Part shown: in pieces, positions 28,296 to 48,751 of the stretch
Layout: every line of letters starts with the position of its first letter
Numbering within the stretch: the stretch's first letter is position 1
DNA from: Candidatus Moraniibacteriota bacterium
GTDB taxonomy: Bacteria > Patescibacteriota > Minisyncoccia > Moranbacterales > UBA2206
Length of the DNA: 64,000 nucleotides
Direction: 5' to 3'
Assembly (NCBI GenBank): GCA_030645735.1
Contig: JAUSNP010000003.1
Location: 27,608 to 91,607, forward strand
The notes under the pieces: generated by a model
Databases searched by the model: none
The model's input: the letters and a program-made list of their open reading frames with translations, nothing else
Told to the model about the DNA's origin: nothing
Made by a program: the position numbers and the translations under genes

Positions 28296-29318
28296 TTAAA
28301 AGAAACTTTTGATTTTCTGAATAATACGATAGGCCAAATATTTTCTTCGGCCAATTATAATGTCATAACAACCGGGGAACTTGATTGAAACAGTTACTGG
28401 AGAAAAACTTTGTTTGAATCTGGTGATGCCCGCCCAATTATTATCCGCTGTTCCTGTTTTCACTCCGCCGAAATCATACCCAATCGCCCCAAATTTTTTA
28501 GCATCTTGAATTTGCTTCCATTGCAACAGATAGGGCGCCATCACATTGCGAAAACGATCATCCGAGGCGCCATGCAAATAAGTTACTGTGTCATCAAAGA
28601 AAATCACAATATTAGCTGCAATTATTTCCCCGCCTCGCGTCGACGAGCGGTCGTCTCCGCAAGTCGAGGCGGGACCTTCAAATTCTGCATAATATAGTTT
28701 TATATTTTCTCCTGGAATTGCCTCAAACATTTTTTGATAATAATCGCGCGGATGCGGAGTGATGCTTTGACGAGCGGAAGTGATTTCCACTAAGTCGCAA
28801 AATTTGTCCACATATTTTTTTTCATTGGAAATTCCCACTCGCACACCTTTCTTTTCAGCTAGTCTGATGTTATAACGGGTTTTCGGTTTCATCTCAGCTA
28901 GCAATGTTTCTTCACTTTTGGTGATATCAATAATAAATAATTCTCTAGGTTGCATATCATGTGGCGCTTTCACGACAAACGCATCAACACTTTTCTTGGT
29001 CAAATCCAAAATTTCTTGTGACGCGGGTTCAATGCGAATCCAGCCAGCATGATGGTCTTCAGCCAAGCCAATTAGATTTTTAAAATAATTAGAAACATTC
29101 TTGTCTCTGATGTTAAAAATATTGCCCCGCGGGATATAAAAATATTTGCCGACGATTGGCAATTTGTGCTCGATGATGTTGGACCAGAATCGTTCGCCCT
29201 TGATGTTCAAAGTTTTTTTGCCAGCCAATTCTTGAAATTCTCGCCACCAGTCCGACTGTAAAAATCCTTCCCCAGGGGCTTGTTGCATCAGGTCATTAAT
29301 TTTCAAATTATCTCGCAT
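28296..29318 (-). CDS. FemAB-family peptidyltransferase (aminoacyl-tRNA-dependent peptidoglycan branch formation), with an in-frame palindromic-element insertion
   Basis: FemAB-like architecture and length. The insertion encodes GPASTCGDDRSSTRGGE. Confidence 0.65.
   Translation of the reverse strand: MRDNLKINDLMQQAPGEGFLQSDWWREFQELAGKKTLNIKGERFWSNIIEHKLPIVGKYFYIPRGNIFNIRDKNVSNYFKNLIGLAEDHHAGWIRIEPASQEILDLTKKSVDAFVVKAPHDMQPRELFIIDITKSEETLLAEMKPKTRYNIRLAEKKGVRVGISNEKKYVDKFCDLVEITSARQSITPHPRDYYQKMFEAIPGENIKLYYAEFEGPASTCGDDRSSTRGGEIIAANIVIFFDDTVTYLHGASDDRFRNVMAPYLLQWKQIQDAKKFGAIGYDFGGVKTGTADNNWAGITRFKQSFSPVTVSIKFPGCYDIIIGRRKYLAYRIIQKIKSFF
28627..28672. repeat. GC-rich ~47-bp palindromic element, copy A (ccccgcctcgcgtcgacgagcggtcgtctccgcaagtcgaggcggga)
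   Basis: 9-bp terminal inverted repeat cccgcctcg/cgaggcggg with internal palindrome cgtcgacg. About 65% GC inside an AT-rich gene. Near-identical to 36275..36321. Confidence 0.85.
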
Positions 29319-34604: not shown

Positions 34605-37343
34605 TTATATTTCTCCCCAATTATCCCCAATCTGCACATCCACTACCAATGGAACCTTGAGTTTGATGACTTGTTCCATGGCGGTTTTTATTTTTTGCGC
34701 AAAAGTTTCCGCGATTTCTTCTTTGACTTCAAACAAAAGTTCATCATGCACTTGCAAGATTGTGCGGGCCTGGCCGGCAAATTCAGCCACGACTTTTTCA
34801 GCTTCAATCATAGCCAATTTCATGATGTCAGCCGCCATGCCTTGGATTGGCATATTGATGGCCATACGTTCAGCACCAGATTGCACTTGGAAATTGGCCG
34901 AGTTTATTTCTGGAATGTAACGACGGCGACCCAGTTGTGTTTCCACGAATAAATTTTTCTTGGCTTCCTGCTTGGTGTCGTGCATATATTTGGCCACGCC
35001 CGAGAACTTTTCCATATATTCATTGATGAAATTCTTGGCTTCTTCACGATCAATGCCGGCCGAAGCCGCAAAGCCAAACACGCCCATACCATAGATGATG
35101 CCGAAGTTCAACGCCTTGGCCTTGCTGCGCATTTTTTCTGTGACTTGCGACATGGAAACCTTGTTGATGATGGAAGCAGTCGCGCGATGAATGTCTTCGC
35201 CTTTGGTGAAAGCTTCGATCATGTTTTTGTCGCCCGACACATGCGCCACCACTCGCAAATCAATTTGTGAATAATCAGCACTGACCAATTTGAAACCTTT
35301 CTCTGCCTCAAAAGCCGTGCGCAAAAGTTGCCCCACATCAGTTTTGATCGGAATGTTTTGCAAATTTGGATCAGAAGATGACAGTCGTCCAGTGGCTGCC
35401 ACCGCTTGATTGAACGAGGTGTGAATGCGTGAATTATCATCCACCAACTTCGGCAATGAATCTAGATAGGTTGTCTTCAATTTGAAAATTTCACGATATT
35501 CTTCAATCTTTTCAATGATCTTGTGTTCTCCGCGCAATTTTGTGAGCTCAGCTGAAGCAGTAGAAAAACCAGTTTTCAATTTCTTCACATTGTCTGTCGG
35601 AATCTGCAAAGTTTCAAACAAAACATCCGCCACTTGTTTGGGCGAACTGATATTGAAATCTTTGCCCGCCAGCTGGTGAATGCTTTTTTCCAGAATGGCG
35701 ATGCGTTTTTCAATGGTTTCCGAAATGCCAACAAAAATAGTCTTGTTTAAATGGATGCCATGCATTTCAATCTCAGCCAAAATCTTGACCAAGGGCATTT
35801 CAATTTTTTGCAAAACAGTTTCCAGATTATGCTTCTCACCCTGTTGCATGGAAATATCTTGAATTTTTTTCTGATGAATGCTTTCCACTTTGAAAACATA
35901 GTCTGCGCGCTGACAAATCTGTTGTGCCACTTCAGTCGCCGATTCAATTTCCAAGCCCAGTTGGCCTTTTTTGTTAGCTGCTGACAATTCTTCACCCAAT
36001 TCTTCCAAAACGATGTTTTCCAATTCAACTTTGCCACCGGGATTCAAAACATAGGCCGACAACATCACGTCCCAATAAATATTTTTGAGTTCAATTCCAT
36101 ATTTTCGCAAAACTTCAAACGCATGTTTCAAATCATAACCAATTTTTCTGATTTTTTCATTTTCAAAAATGGTTTTCAACCTGGCAAAACTCTCAACTGA
36201 ATATTCCACATAACCGGCGCGTCCGGTCTTGTGACAAATCGCCACGCCCTGGATGGTGCTGGCAAAATATTTTTCCCCGCCTCGCGTCGACGAGTGGTCG
36301 TCTCCACGAGTCGAGGCGGGTCCAACTGTCTTTAGTGTAATCGCAATTTCTTCTTGCTCACTTAATAATTTCACGAAATCATCCATTTTTTCTGGGGTTA
36401 TCAATTCAAATTTGAAATCTTTCACGCCAGCCGCATCAGTACTACTCGCTTTCATATCTCCACTTCCTTGTCCTGGCAATCGCTTAATCAATGAAAAGAA
36501 ATTCAATTCTTGAAAAAGTCTGACAATCGTCGGCCGATCAAACTCGCGCGTCACCGCTTTTTCCAAATCCAATTGCACCGGCGCGTCCAACACAATGGTT
36601 GCCAACCACTTGCTTTTGAAAGCCAAGACTTTGTTTTTTTCCAATTTGTCTTTCACTGCGCCTTTGATTTCCGCAATGTTTTCATAAACCTTTTCCACCG
36701 TGTCATATTTTTGCAAAAGAGTGGTAGCGGTTTTTTCACCGATGCCTTTGACGCCTGGAATATTGTCCGAAGCATCCCCACGCAAACTCTTGTAATCAAT
36801 CATTTGATCCGGTCGCAAACCGAACCTTTCAAAAACTTCTGGTGCGCCATAGAGCACAGTGTCAGTAATGCCACGACGCAACGCAAAAACTTTGGTAGTG
36901 TCATTCACTAATTGCAAAGTGTCCAAATCGCCAGTCACGATGATATTTTCAATGCCTGCATTCAATTTTTTTGATTGTGTCACGATGGTTCCAATCACAT
37001 CATCCGCCTCAAAACCTTCTTTTTCATAAATCGGAATGTTGAAAGCGCGCACCAATTCCTTGACGCGATCAATCTGCGCATACAACTCATCCGGCGCCTT
37101 GGTGCGAGTGGCTTTGTATTCCGCATATTCCTCATGACGAAAAGTCGGCGCCTTCAAATCGAAAGTGGCGATGATATAGTCCGGCTGAAATCTTTCAATC
37201 ACGCTGAGCAGTGTCGAAGCAAAACCATAAACCGCATTCACCAACTCGCCTGACTTGGTCGACAACGGTGGCAAAGCATGAAACGAACGATGAATAATCG
37301 CATTGCCGTCGATAACTACTAGTTTTTTAGTCTTTTTTTCCAT
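34605..37343 (-). CDS. polA: DNA polymerase I (5'-3' exonuclease, 3'-5' exonuclease-like and polymerase domains), with an in-frame palindromic-element insertion
   Basis: 5'-nuclease N-terminus (VIDGNAIIHRSFHALPPL), and polymerase motifs RRxAKxxNFGxxYG (RSKAKALNFGIIYG) and VHDELLFEV. The insertion encodes GPASTRGDDHSSTRGGE between the nuclease and polymerase regions. Confidence 0.9.
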   Translation of the reverse strand: MEKKTKKLVVIDGNAIIHRSFHALPPLSTKSGELVNAVYGFASTLLSVIERFQPDYIIATFDLKAPTFRHEEYAEYKATRTKAPDELYAQIDRVKELVRAFNIPIYEKEGFEADDVIGTIVTQSKKLNAGIENIIVTGDLDTLQLVNDTTKVFALRRGITDTVLYGAPEVFERFGLRPDQMIDYKSLRGDASDNIPGVKGIGEKTATTLLQKYDTVEKVYENIAEIKGAVKDKLEKNKVLAFKSKWLATIVLDAPVQLDLEKAVTREFDRPTIVRLFQELNFFSLIKRLPGQGSGDMKASSTDAAGVKDFKFELITPEKMDDFVKLLSEQEEIAITLKTVGPASTRGDDHSSTRGGEKYFASTIQGVAICHKTGRAGYVEYSVESFARLKTIFENEKIRKIGYDLKHAFEVLRKYGIELKNIYWDVMLSAYVLNPGGKVELENIVLEELGEELSAANKKGQLGLEIESATEVAQQICQRADYVFKVESIHQKKIQDISMQQGEKHNLETVLQKIEMPLVKILAEIEMHGIHLNKTIFVGISETIEKRIAILEKSIHQLAGKDFNISSPKQVADVLFETLQIPTDNVKKLKTGFSTASAELTKLRGEHKIIEKIEEYREIFKLKTTYLDSLPKLVDDNSRIHTSFNQAVAATGRLSSSDPNLQNIPIKTDVGQLLRTAFEAEKGFKLVSADYSQIDLRVVAHVSGDKNMIEAFTKGEDIHRATASIINKVSMSQVTEKMRSKAKALNFGIIYGMGVFGFAASAGIDREEAKNFINEYMEKFSGVAKYMHDTKQEAKKNLFVETQLGRRRYIPEINSANFQVQSGAERMAINMPIQGMAADIMKLAMIEAEKVVAEFAGQARTILQVHDELLFEVKEEIAETFAQKIKTAMEQVIKLKVPLVVDVQIGDNWGEI
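36275..36321. repeat. GC-rich ~47-bp palindromic element, copy B (ccccgcctcgcgtcgacgagtggtcgtctccacgagtcgaggcgggt)
   Basis: About 43/47 identical to copy A and in the same orientation. Similar A/T-then-CCCC left flank. Confidence 0.85.
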
Positions 37344-48315: not shown

Positions 48316-48433
48316 CCCTCTCCCTTAGGGAGAGGAGGTTCGCTTTTTCTCCTTCTCCCTCAAGGGAGAAGGTGCCCGAAGGGCGGATTCTGAACTTATT
48401 AACATTGTCATCCCGGGCTTGACCCGGGATCTA
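48316..48433. repeat. Cluster of four GC-rich hairpins (cctctccc-tta-gggagagg; ccttctccc-tcaa-gggagaagg; gccc-gaa-gggc; atcccggg-cttga-cccgggat)
   Basis: About 60% GC over about 120 bp, between the gspE fusion stop and the GIY-YIG start. The first two hairpins are variants of each other. Confidence 0.75.
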
Positions 48434-48439
48434 CTTTTT

Positions 48440-48751
48440 ATGCAACACCAATATTGTGTTTACATATTAACTAGCCAAACAAACCGAGTTTTGTATGTTG
48501 GTGTGACAAGTAACTTACCCAAAAGAATCTTCGAACACAAAAATAAATTGGCAGATGGTTTTACGAAAAAATACAATGTCGATAAATTGGTTTATTTTGA
48601 GCAAGGCGAGGATGTGAGTTCTGCCCTGCATAGAGAAAAACAATTGAAAAAATGGAAAAGGGAGTGGAAACTTGAATTGATCGAGAAGTCTAATCCTGAA
48701 TGGAAAGATTTGAGCGATACCTTAGTAGATTCCGGCTCAAGGCCGGAATGA
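48440..48751 (+). CDS. GIY-YIG nuclease-domain protein (small, UPF0213-like)
   Basis: YCVYILTSQTNRVLYVGVTSNLPKRIFEH with Y..Y..G and a downstream R/E (REKQLKKWKREWKLELIE). Start taken at ATG 48440; the track ORF starts at 48419. Confidence 0.7.
   Translation: MQHQYCVYILTSQTNRVLYVGVTSNLPKRIFEHKNKLADGFTKKYNVDKLVYFEQGEDVSSALHREKQLKKWKREWKLELIEKSNPEWKDLSDTLVDSGSRPE

Follow-up and report, generated by a model that had tools for sequence, protein, structure and literature searches.

The polA gene examined here carries a short in-frame insert, which is most probably one copy of a family of tiny (38-47 bp), GC-rich palindromes multiplying and spreading in Patescibacteria (CPR). The element is probably a selfish coding palindrome similar to the RPEs of Rickettsia, possibly mobilised by GIY-YIG nucleases; it would be selfish or neutral DNA and not a working part of PolA. 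In the window, the whole stretch of 64,000 nt that was analysed and that comes from a Candidatus Moranbacteria MAG, polA occupies 34605..37343 on the minus strand. It encodes a protein of 912 aa composed of a 5'-3' exonuclease, a vestigial 3'-5' exonuclease-like domain and a family A polymerase in which the motifs DYSQIDLR, KALNFGIIYG and QVHDE are intact. The hairpin copy is a 45-nt imperfect palindrome at 36276..36320, reading CCCGCCTCGCGTCGACGAGTGGTCGTCTCCACGAGTCGAGGCGGG on the plus strand, and the asymmetric arm of the family, CCCGCCTCGCGTCGACGAG, is found on this strand. By transcription and translation of the minus strand it encodes residues 342-356 of PolA (PASTRGDDHSSTRGG). It is composed of two arms of about 19 nt each with a 6-nt loop between them, in the manner of the terminal inverted repeats of MITEs, and is GC-rich in a low-GC, AT-rich host genome. 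The fold of its mRNA-sense strand has an energy of -27.4 kcal/mol (z = -3.05 against dinucleotide shuffles).

The boundaries of the copy were taken from an empty site in the orthologue P0002, whose PolA is 90% identical. The empty site reads ACT GCG GGA/GAA AAA TAT, the slash marking the insertion point, and the filled site of the window reads ACA GTT GGA/45 nt/GAA AAA TAT. When the insert is left out, the window sequence around this point is ..GTTGGA/GAAAAATA... As the empty site is GGA/GAA, the insert measures exactly 45 nt or 15 aa and the target duplication of MITEs is absent. At the level of the aligned sequences, the polA copy is thus shown to be inserted cleanly, 45 bp having been added where a Gly codon meets a Glu codon. 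The initial annotation had placed the element at 36275-36321, which is the right locus with ends lying one base too far out on either side. It had also assigned 17 residues to the insert, two more than the empty site allows; the G and E on either side belong to the native protein. Alignment of PolA homologues agreed with its expectation that the insert is not a general feature of the protein, which lacks it in 117 of the 120 closest homologues, the 90% identical one among them. The same nucleotide site is occupied in PolA proteins of only 64% identity, and a decayed remnant of 21 nt is left at this site in P0005.

The position of the insert in the protein was analysed in an AlphaFold2 model of PolA (mean pLDDT 84), which showed a TM score of 0.91 to the Bst large fragment. 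In the model, the fold matches the Bst/Klenow large fragment and is otherwise intact despite the insert. Residues 343-356 have pLDDT below 50 and are bordered by confidently predicted strands at 332-340 and 363-372. An exposed, insertion-tolerant loop, as had been supposed for this place, therefore fits the model, and the fold appears compatible with a surface position as in RPEs. The loop is not in the linker between the exonuclease and polymerase parts, where it was first thought to be. The true interdomain linker comprises residues 292-307 and the insert is situated about 35 residues beyond it, in the 3'-5' exonuclease-like domain, where it falls within the β1-β2 hairpin and three residues past the position of the Exo I motif. 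In a hand-extended alignment with Klenow, this motif is degenerate in the window PolA, with T and K at the positions of D355 and E357. The element would survive only where an added loop is harmless, and the harmless place in PolA would be this first β-hairpin of a catalytically dead domain.

The window possesses a sister copy of 45 nt at 28629..28673 on the plus strand; with respect to its host gene, its orientation and frame are the same as those of the polA copy. The host (28296..29318, minus strand, 340 aa) encodes a FemAB-family peptidoglycan bridge-formation transferase, in which the copy is translated as PASTCGDDRSSTRGG, residues 216-230. The two copies are identical at 42 of 45 positions, and two of the three differences form a compensatory pair, C:G in one copy and T:A in the other. 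The window contains the 19-nt left arm at 28629 and 36276 and nowhere else, where shuffles expect 0.01 occurrences. Each copy has the 9-nt outer arm once on either strand, which makes four occurrences (0.13 expected). These repeats, together with the reading frame kept through the 912-aa ORF, bear out the original description of the polA locus as a second in-frame copy of a palindromic element. Chance similarity or an assembly artefact is already refuted as an explanation for the pair and retains practically no probability. Nothing but the small size of the element favours it; against it stand the expectation from shuffles, the recovery of the element from over 100 independent assemblies (NCBI, ENA and JGI), and an NCBI-recorded DNA polymerase I of 'Candidatus Moranbacteria bacterium' (233-kb contig), identical to the insert-bearing window PolA.

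To the two window copies, a large family spread across the bacterial group and including copies in non-coding DNA and tRNA fragments can be added, which the initial annotation had missed. A scan with the exact 19-mer matched at least 118 stretches, at least 112 of them low-GC loci with the full element. These loci belong mostly to MAGs of Moranbacteria, Parcubacteria/Paceibacterota, Saccharibacteria, Buchananbacteria, Komeilibacteria and Doudnabacteria. The 127 copies censused are 38-47 nt in length, and family members start with CCCGCCTCG. Besides FemAB and PolA, in which three or more sites are used, the hosts include ORFs resembling GyrB, SecA, UvrA and RecG, labels given by eye from N-terminal sequences without a search. 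Full-text literature searches for palindromic or in-frame elements in CPR/Patescibacteria and for the arm sequences returned no description. A permissive Rfam search with the element gave only chance-level matches (E ~1).

Alignment of the copies showed nearly invariant arms on both sides of an apical stem that varies but is kept by compensatory changes. The apical pairs 20:31, 21:30 and 22:29 gave 22 double-change cells, a value reached by none of 500 shuffles. A symmetric register of the hairpin was ruled out, covariation being absent from it. Apical parts differ by 3.81 edits within an assembly and by 4.91 between assemblies (0 of 1000 permutations), and this likeness is read as a sign that copies may be active or concerted inside genomes. 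At the FemAB site the element is found in 13 of 120 homologues with nearly unchanged arms, and an empty site is seen in a homologue of 82% identity (P0122). Together with the 64% identical PolA proteins, this occupancy of identical sites is not predicted by purely neutral random insertion; it needs a preferred target, exchange between alleles by recombination, or selection that favours the element. The recurrent sites may reflect either repeated insertion or an ancient insertion followed by repeated precise loss.

Some of these features would also be expected if the hairpin benefits its host, is inherited vertically and is lost repeatedly. It could act as a nucleic-acid signal, in protein binding, replication, recombination, DNA uptake or mRNA pausing or stability, or as a peptide module. 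The preserved stem and the shared sites in distant PolA and FemAB proteins fit such a role, as do arms that hardly change among several candidate phyla and between lineages with only 50-60% identity in their host proteins. Some occupied FemAB pairs also cluster (P0165/P0213, 59% identity). The distribution among the 120 FemAB homologues is patchy, with at least eight changes between presence and absence. The closest relatives of both window proteins lack the insert, the remnant in P0005 is decayed, the density is low (two copies per 64 kb), and the element is placed at unrelated sites in unrelated genes and in both orientations. A beneficial hairpin is therefore considered unlikely, and a spreading selfish or neutral palindrome is preferred.

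About 40% of the censused copies are situated inside long ORFs. Embedding was scored after in-silico excision of the element, so out-of-frame copies were not excluded by construction. Lengths of 39, 42 or 45 nt were observed in 45 of the 46 copies in long ORFs and in 54 of 78 (69%) elsewhere (Fisher p = 4.8e-5). The in-ORF copies are almost always stop-free, and 34 of the 46 fall exactly between codons. As in RPEs, the insertions are thus in frame in unrelated genes. Among 54 ORF copies, 36 are read in the frame PAST..STRGG and 11 in the frame PPRVDE..RVEAG (chi-square p = 5e-21), and genic copies avoid four of the six frames. Genic lengths in multiples of three and a single favoured orientation and frame indicate that the copies are most likely translated. 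The bias in orientation is confined to ORF copies, suggesting selection on the product and not strand-specific insertion. Non-coding copies are unbiased with respect to GC skew (31 vs 35) and to the coding strand, and strand-specific insertion of the IS200/IS605 kind was discarded on this ground. From the frame statistics, the element would be kept in the mRNA and translated as a hydrophilic loop rich in Gly, Ser, Thr, Arg and Asp.

The frame pattern also bears on the idea that the insert is removed or skipped, as a tiny intron-like element or a gap bypassed by the ribosome, leaving PolA without the 15 residues. The element forms a stable mRNA hairpin, and the polA insert begins after the Gly codon GGA and ends in GGC GGG, so that a hop from Gly to Gly would restore the ancestral sequence. 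However, bypass or removal would free the length of the insert, which the genic copies do not show, nor would it account for the avoided frames. The putative take-off codon GGA is followed by CCC and not by a stop codon. Copies in the D-arms of tRNAs, where an insert of 38-45 nt left in place looks harmful, would fit removal, but those tRNAs with a hairpin that were examined proved truncated or redundant, with an intact copy nearby, so that RNA processing need not be invoked. After in-silico excision, aragorn restored a tRNA in one locus only (L059), which turned out to be another such copy, and the tRNA intron idea was dropped. At the Rfam gathering threshold the window contains only two tRNAs, with no intron or other RNA family matching the element. 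Removal or bypass is thus judged very improbable, and translation of the insert remains the favoured reading.

The tRNA fragments share their surroundings with small GIY-YIG nuclease genes. In many genomes the hairpin is positioned 10-55 nt upstream of such a gene in a truncated tRNA copy, and the recurring order is a tRNA 5' fragment with the hairpin, a GIY-YIG gene of about 80 aa and an intact tRNA. The encoded proteins match Pfam GIY-YIG (PF01541) with E values from 1.9e-13 to 4.9e-18. Among loci selected by the hairpin, 14 of 16 GIY-YIG ORFs have a copy at a distance of 8-100 nt. When 80 loci were picked by the protein alone, the 48.7 kb lying up to 200 nt from the ORF contained 32 copies and the other 144 kb contained one, an enrichment of about 95-fold. 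An intact tRNA follows the nuclease gene directly in 55 of 76 loci. The hairpin class equals the class of the nearest GIY-YIG neighbour in 45 of 50 cases (permutation 1/2000), a correlation of class and clade that is confounded by shared ancestry. The window itself contains a small GIY-YIG gene of this protein class at 48419..48751 on the plus strand (103-110 aa; E = 4.9e-18). The small GC-rich palindromes on its flanks (48317-48335, 48351-48372, 48410-48430 and 48729-48749) are not of the polA type, and the gene may be linked to the polA copy. The layout of a homing-endonuclease cassette, a GIY-YIG domain beside the targeted gene, appears to be present for the associated gene and not for the polA copy.

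The orientation of the hairpin relative to the nuclease gene is not fixed (8 vs 5) and its position in the D-arm varies, which is awkward for a simple model of the hairpin as the end of the element. The association could also be indirect, with duplicated tRNA fragments serving as neutral landing sites. Other vehicles were sought as well. No transposase-like ORF was evident between paired copies when ORF listings were inspected by eye, without a family-library search, and no parent IS with matching ends was found in about 840 kb of loci. A phage vector was rejected, as the scan of viral contigs yielded a single half-match, put down to chance and lacking the right arm, in a high-GC phage tail-like gene.

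More speculatively, the small stand-alone GIY-YIG nucleases would move the element or make its landing sites. In its fullest form, which is put forward tentatively as a possibility and not as the expected outcome, the polA hairpin would be the dispersed non-autonomous partner of a new mobile system of Patescibacteria. A GIY-YIG protein of about 80 aa in a tRNA cassette would recognise its cognate hairpin and move it or make sites for it, thereby seeding in-frame palindromes at recurrent sites of essential genes across candidate phyla. Alternatively, the hairpins might not move by themselves and might be filler DNA from the repair of double-strand breaks by the GIY-YIG nuclease, made on target in the tRNA D-arm and off target elsewhere, for example at GGW/GAWA in polA and FemAB. 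Insertion without target duplication, repeated hits at identical sites, the tight placement in the D-arm beside the nuclease gene and a GAN codon after 21 of the 36 genic copies in sense orientation agree with this. It rests wholly on inference, has no known source of free hairpin DNA, and lacks a consistent flanking motif that genic, tRNA and other non-coding copies would share in the orientation of the element. The filler explanation is accordingly given little credence beside that of a spreading palindrome.

Rickettsia has been regarded as peculiar in having coding palindromes in its essential genes, and a much smaller, unrelated family in CPR would mean that the phenomenon recurs in reduced genomes. 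Such inserts inflate the protein alignments of these MAGs, can pass for lineage-specific loops and break tRNA and gene callers. The recurrent sites and the tight link to a minimal GIY-YIG protein offer a testable route to the spread of REP-like hairpins, a long-open question. The pair also points to a compact structure- or sequence-specific nuclease and hairpin of possible biotechnological interest.

Among known systems, RPEs are closest in their coding behaviour. They are in-frame coding palindromes, roughly 100-150 bp long, and are confined to Rickettsia (Ogata et al. 2000 Science; 2002 Genome Res, following the summary in PMC10969869). Both families are repeated palindromes in frame in unrelated housekeeping genes, translated at positions compatible with the fold and found also in non-coding DNA, and each is interpreted as selfish DNA of host-dependent bacteria with small genomes. 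The present element differs in its length of 38-47 bp, in its high GC content against an AT-rich genome, in being common to several candidate phyla, in recurring at identical sites of distant orthologues and in its link to GIY-YIG genes beside tRNAs. Judged from size and taxon only, it falls outside the RPE sequence family.

In overall arrangement the hairpins resemble REPs and their RAYT partners. Both kinds are imperfect GC-rich hairpins of 20-45 nt with a conserved asymmetry, dispersed in many copies, and both adjoin a small single-domain nuclease gene which is itself flanked by hairpins and with whose lineage the hairpin class co-varies. REPs are extragenic, have a conserved GTAG/GTGG head and a Y1 HUH partner (RAYT). 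In contrast, many copies here are intragenic, no such head was seen in the flanks, and in place of a repeat-flanked Y1 transposase the associated gene is a GIY-YIG gene between a tRNA fragment and a tRNA. The pairing would thus resemble REP/RAYT with a different nuclease fold. Most MITEs carry a target duplication, while IS200/IS605 derivatives insert without one. The element shares with both that it is a short non-autonomous inverted repeat, and with the latter the missing duplication. It differs from MITEs in this last point, and the loci covered, about 840 kb, gave no IS element whose ends would make it a parent. Unlike in IS200/IS605, no fixed tetra- or pentanucleotide was found 5' of the element across the context classes, and replication-strand bias is absent.

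The GC clusters or 'byps' of yeast mitochondria and the gap of T4 gene 60 are skipped by the ribosome between matching take-off and landing codons, with a stop codon and free of the triplet rule (10.1101/2022.08.31.505936; PMC5009743). These too are short mobile GC-rich hairpins in coding genes of AT-rich genomes, and GGA precedes the polA copy as it does the T4 gap, but in the present family length and frame are restricted and the stop codon is missing. For the nuclease, the nearest parallel is T4 SegB, a free-standing GIY-YIG homing endonuclease in a tRNA gene cluster (PMC2330249). SegB-type enzymes are larger, possess DNA-binding domains and are not tied to a dispersed hairpin, whereas the proteins described here have about 80 aa and the catalytic domain only. 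In both, a GIY-YIG gene is positioned among tRNA genes, and the layout suggests a mobile cassette which spares the intact tRNA.

The element in polA is a 45-nt imperfect palindrome at 36276-36320 of the window, where the plus strand reads CCCGCCTCGCGTCGACGAGTGGTCGTCTCCACGAGTCGAGGCGGG. A sister copy differing at 3 positions is situated at 28629-28673. The 19-nt left arm has exactly 2 matches in the window against 0.01 expected from dinucleotide-preserving shuffles, while the 9-nt outer arm has 4 matches, one on each strand of each copy, against 0.13 expected. The mean G+C of the window is about 40%, and the two copies form its strongest GC-rich hairpins (about -27 kcal/mol). The polA copy is located in a minus-strand gene (34605-37343) for a DNA polymerase I of 912 aa, which possesses 5'-nuclease, 3'-5'-exonuclease-like and family A polymerase domains and is identical to a database protein from a Candidatus Moranbacteria MAG. 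The sister copy is located in a minus-strand gene for a FemAB-family transferase of 340 aa. Both copies show identical orientation and reading frame in their ORFs, and the second in-frame palindromic copy reported inside polA by the initial annotation is confirmed.

The inserted segment was absent in 117 of the 120 best PolA homologues aligned, including the closest among them, P0002 (90% identity). At the site, the DNA of P0002 reads ACT GCG GGA directly followed by GAA AAA TAT, while the window reads ACA GTT GGA, the 45 nt and then GAA AAA TAT. Comparison of this empty site with the filled one shows that the 45-nt palindrome and nothing else was inserted. Placed between two codons, it extends the protein by 15 residues, PASTRGDDHSSTRGG (residues 342-356), and has no target-site duplication in this comparison. 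The glycine and glutamic acid counted in the peptide by the initial annotation are native flanking residues, as they are present at the empty site.

An AlphaFold2 model of the window PolA, built on 51 homologues (mean pLDDT 84), superposed on the Bst large fragment with a TM of 0.91-0.92. In this model, residues 343-356 have pLDDT below 50, and the insert is situated between strands 332-340 and 363-372, which form the first beta-hairpin of the 3'-5' exonuclease-like domain. This supports the earlier suggestion of a tolerated surface loop and not the placement in the exonuclease-polymerase linker, since the linker proper, which follows the 5'-nuclease domain, spans residues 292-307. The window PolA was also aligned to Klenow by HMMER, with extension by hand over the Exo I motif. 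Threonine and lysine occupy the positions of the Klenow Exo I residues D355 and E357 in the hand-extended part, and alanine at the position of D424 was seen directly in the HMMER alignment. Due to these replacements the 3'-5' exonuclease domain is considered vestigial, like those of Bst and Taq; the insert is 3 residues past the dead Exo I motif. As region 330-480 is devoid of the 3'-5' exonuclease catalytic carboxylates, the protein is predicted to lack proofreading.

An exact-match scan with the 19-mer, using one genome per species, matched at least 118 stretches. Six of the matches listed were half-matches in high-GC genomes, and at least 112 low-GC loci carry the complete element. Among the loci listed, most belong to MAGs labelled Moranbacteria, Parcubacteria/Paceibacterota, Saccharibacteria, Buchananbacteria, Komeilibacteria, Doudnabacteria or 'Patescibacteria group'. 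In a few low-GC MAGs with Bdellovibrionales, Gammaproteobacteria or Burkholderiales labels, orthologous loci are nearly identical to those of Patescibacteria MAGs (loci L001 and L058, which match each other, L044 and L077, likewise, and L061, L035, L063, L072, L081, L091 and L092), and these labels may be wrong. The 127 copies censused among the matches listed are about 38-46 nt long, with length peaks at 39, 42 and 45, and have near-invariant arms and a variable apical part. The conservation of the right arm is independent evidence because this arm is outside the search pattern. Across 40 distinct 45-mers, the apical pairs 20:31, 21:30 and 22:29 showed 22 double-change cells (C:G, U:A, G:C, A:U), a number reached in none of 500 shuffles; no covariation was found in the alternative symmetric register. 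In the supported fold, a 6-bp stem is followed by a 5-nt bulge (TCGCG) and a 5-bp stem; a tandem GA/AG mismatch then precedes a 4-bp stem and a hexaloop. It follows that a hairpin is formed by the element in vivo, either in single-stranded DNA or in RNA, and that it matters for persistence of the element. Apical parts were closer within an assembly than between assemblies (3.81 vs 4.91 edits; 0 of 1000 permutations), which fits multiplication or homogenisation within genomes.

For analysis of the genic copies, each copy was excised in silico and its junction had to fall within a frame that stays open for 60 codons or more on each side, which avoids circularity. Among the 46 copies which passed, 45 have lengths divisible by 3, compared to 54 of 78 others (Fisher p = 4.8e-5), and 34 lie exactly between codons. 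The element has no stop codon in any of its six frames. The frame of the window, PAST(R)GDD.SSTRGG, is used by 36 of 54 ORF copies and the opposite-orientation frame PPRVDE..SPRVEAG by 11. The orientation bias is confined to ORF copies; among non-coding copies, the two orientations relative to GC skew are about equally frequent (31 vs 35). These patterns of length, frame and orientation are those predicted by selection on a translated product and would not result from splicing, bypass or strand-specific insertion; translation is inferred here from the frame statistics.

The same sites are occupied in distant homologues. P0035, a PolA 64% identical to that of the window, has a 39-nt copy at the same nucleotide position, and the PolA P0005 retains there a 21-nt remnant ending GGCGGG. 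Two other PolA sites are occupied, one in P0100 and P0112 and another in P0117/L007. Other palindrome-like coding inserts (SPQPSPYQGEG, SPQPLPTGQAGSPYKGEG, PPAGG) were observed in the exonuclease-like domain, in the loop of the window insert (P0069, P0071, P0096, P0110, P0117) or in the neighbouring one (P0015, P0029, P0030, P0049), so this region appears to host coding palindromes of several families. In FemAB, the site occupied in the window also holds the element in 13 of 120 homologues, and it is absent from the two closest relatives of element-bearing proteins, P0122 (82% identity) and P0139 (87%). A UPGMA tree of the 120 homologues requires at least 8 changes of element state, and the arms are almost unchanged while the host proteins diverged to 50-60% identity. 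Such recurrence is not predicted for a randomly inserting neutral element. It may be explained by target preference, by allele conversion, or by an ancient gain combined with selection and recurrent precise loss. Nested inserts were also seen: the element-encoded peptide of the FemAB homologue P0196, at the window's site, contains an 8-residue insert, PASPNRGE, and the element loop at L111 6165-6225 contains a second small hairpin, CCGCCTGCCTCGACGGCAAGGCGG.

Several non-coding copies sit in tRNA D-arm-like sequence. Rfam and ORF analysis revealed a recurring layout of a 5' tRNA fragment reaching approximately the anticodon loop, with a D-arm hairpin, followed by a GIY-YIG ORF of about 80 aa (Pfam GIY-YIG catalytic domain, E = 1e-13 to 1e-18) and an intact tRNA copy. 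This layout was seen in L014, L044, L057, L077, L078, L079, L094, L111, L113, L116 and L122-L201; the ORF begins near the former anticodon loop, and the downstream tRNAs include Glu, Gln, Leu, Asn, Arg, Ala and Val. It looks like a tRNA-targeting mobile cassette which restores its target. In L059, a full-length tRNA-Glu(CTC) bearing the hairpin is a second copy, the intact one following the GIY-YIG gene. As an intact copy is present nearby, such tRNA hosts are redundant and no processing is needed. In L045 (about 950-1130), a tRNA-Thr-like sequence has the hairpin in its D-loop, small palindromes TCTCCCTACGGGAGA and TCACCCGTAGGGTGA in the T-loop region and unpaired acceptor ends, with intact tRNAs nearby; it is probably a degenerate tRNA copy that has accumulated inserts. 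Another recurrent non-coding context, ..ATTCGTA.ATTCG...ATTCG, the hairpin and TA.TTCGTAAA.., often just ahead of a gene start, is shared by many non-coding copies (L004, L013, L017, L020, L022, L027, L031, L034, L039, L046, L064 and L105) and represents a composite repeat or else a favoured target.

The association of hairpin and GIY-YIG gene is strong. In an independent test on 80 metagenome loci chosen by GIY-YIG protein only, 32 polA-type hairpins were found within 200 nt of the ORF (48.7 kb), compared to 1 in the remaining 144 kb. Upstream hairpins end 10-55 nt ahead of the ORF, and a tRNA is directly downstream in 55 of 76 loci. Other GIY-YIG loci have different GC-rich hairpins at the same place, e.g. 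CCCGCCCG..CGGGCGGG. Hairpin class tracks GIY-YIG relatedness: in 45 of 50 cases the nearest neighbour agrees in class (permutation 1/2000). This relation is confounded by shared ancestry. In two assemblies, maybe mutual close relatives, the GIY-linked copy equals genic copies in its apical part. Hairpin orientation relative to the gene (8 vs 5) and position within the D-arm vary. The window itself has a plus-strand GIY-YIG gene (48419-48751) after a large ATPase gene, with no adjacent tRNA. On its two sides are four short GC-rich palindromes of other sequence families, at 48317-48335, 48351-48372, 48410-48430 and 48729-48749, the last of which encodes C-terminal residues of the protein. A partnership with minimal GIY-YIG nucleases is the best lead on movement of the element, a tentative and rather doubtful one.

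No earlier description of the element was found in the searchable literature by arm sequences and keywords. The nearest related report is a recent one on group I introns in Patescibacteria tRNA genes (PMC13011429), and an intron at L037 3780-4021 (Rfam Intron_gpI, 65.9 bits), in an intact tRNA after a GIY-YIG gene, fits it. Among known systems, REP/RAYT was ruled out as the element is intragenic and has neither a GTAG head nor a Y1 enzyme. A typical MITE was ruled out by the lack of target duplication, an IS200/IS605 derivative by the lack of target tetranucleotide and strand bias, and a bypass element by the triplet rule of genic copies and the absence of a stop codon. The polA insert is best interpreted as a copy of a small mobile palindrome whose behaviour resembles that of the Rickettsia palindromic elements. 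It does not belong to that group, being set apart by size, taxon and sequence, with non-homology judged from size and taxon. It would be selfish DNA persisting in essential genes wherever an extra hydrophilic loop does no harm. Coding palindromes are already known; what is unusual here is that distant orthologues are occupied at the same site and that the element is tightly linked to tRNA-associated GIY-YIG cassettes.
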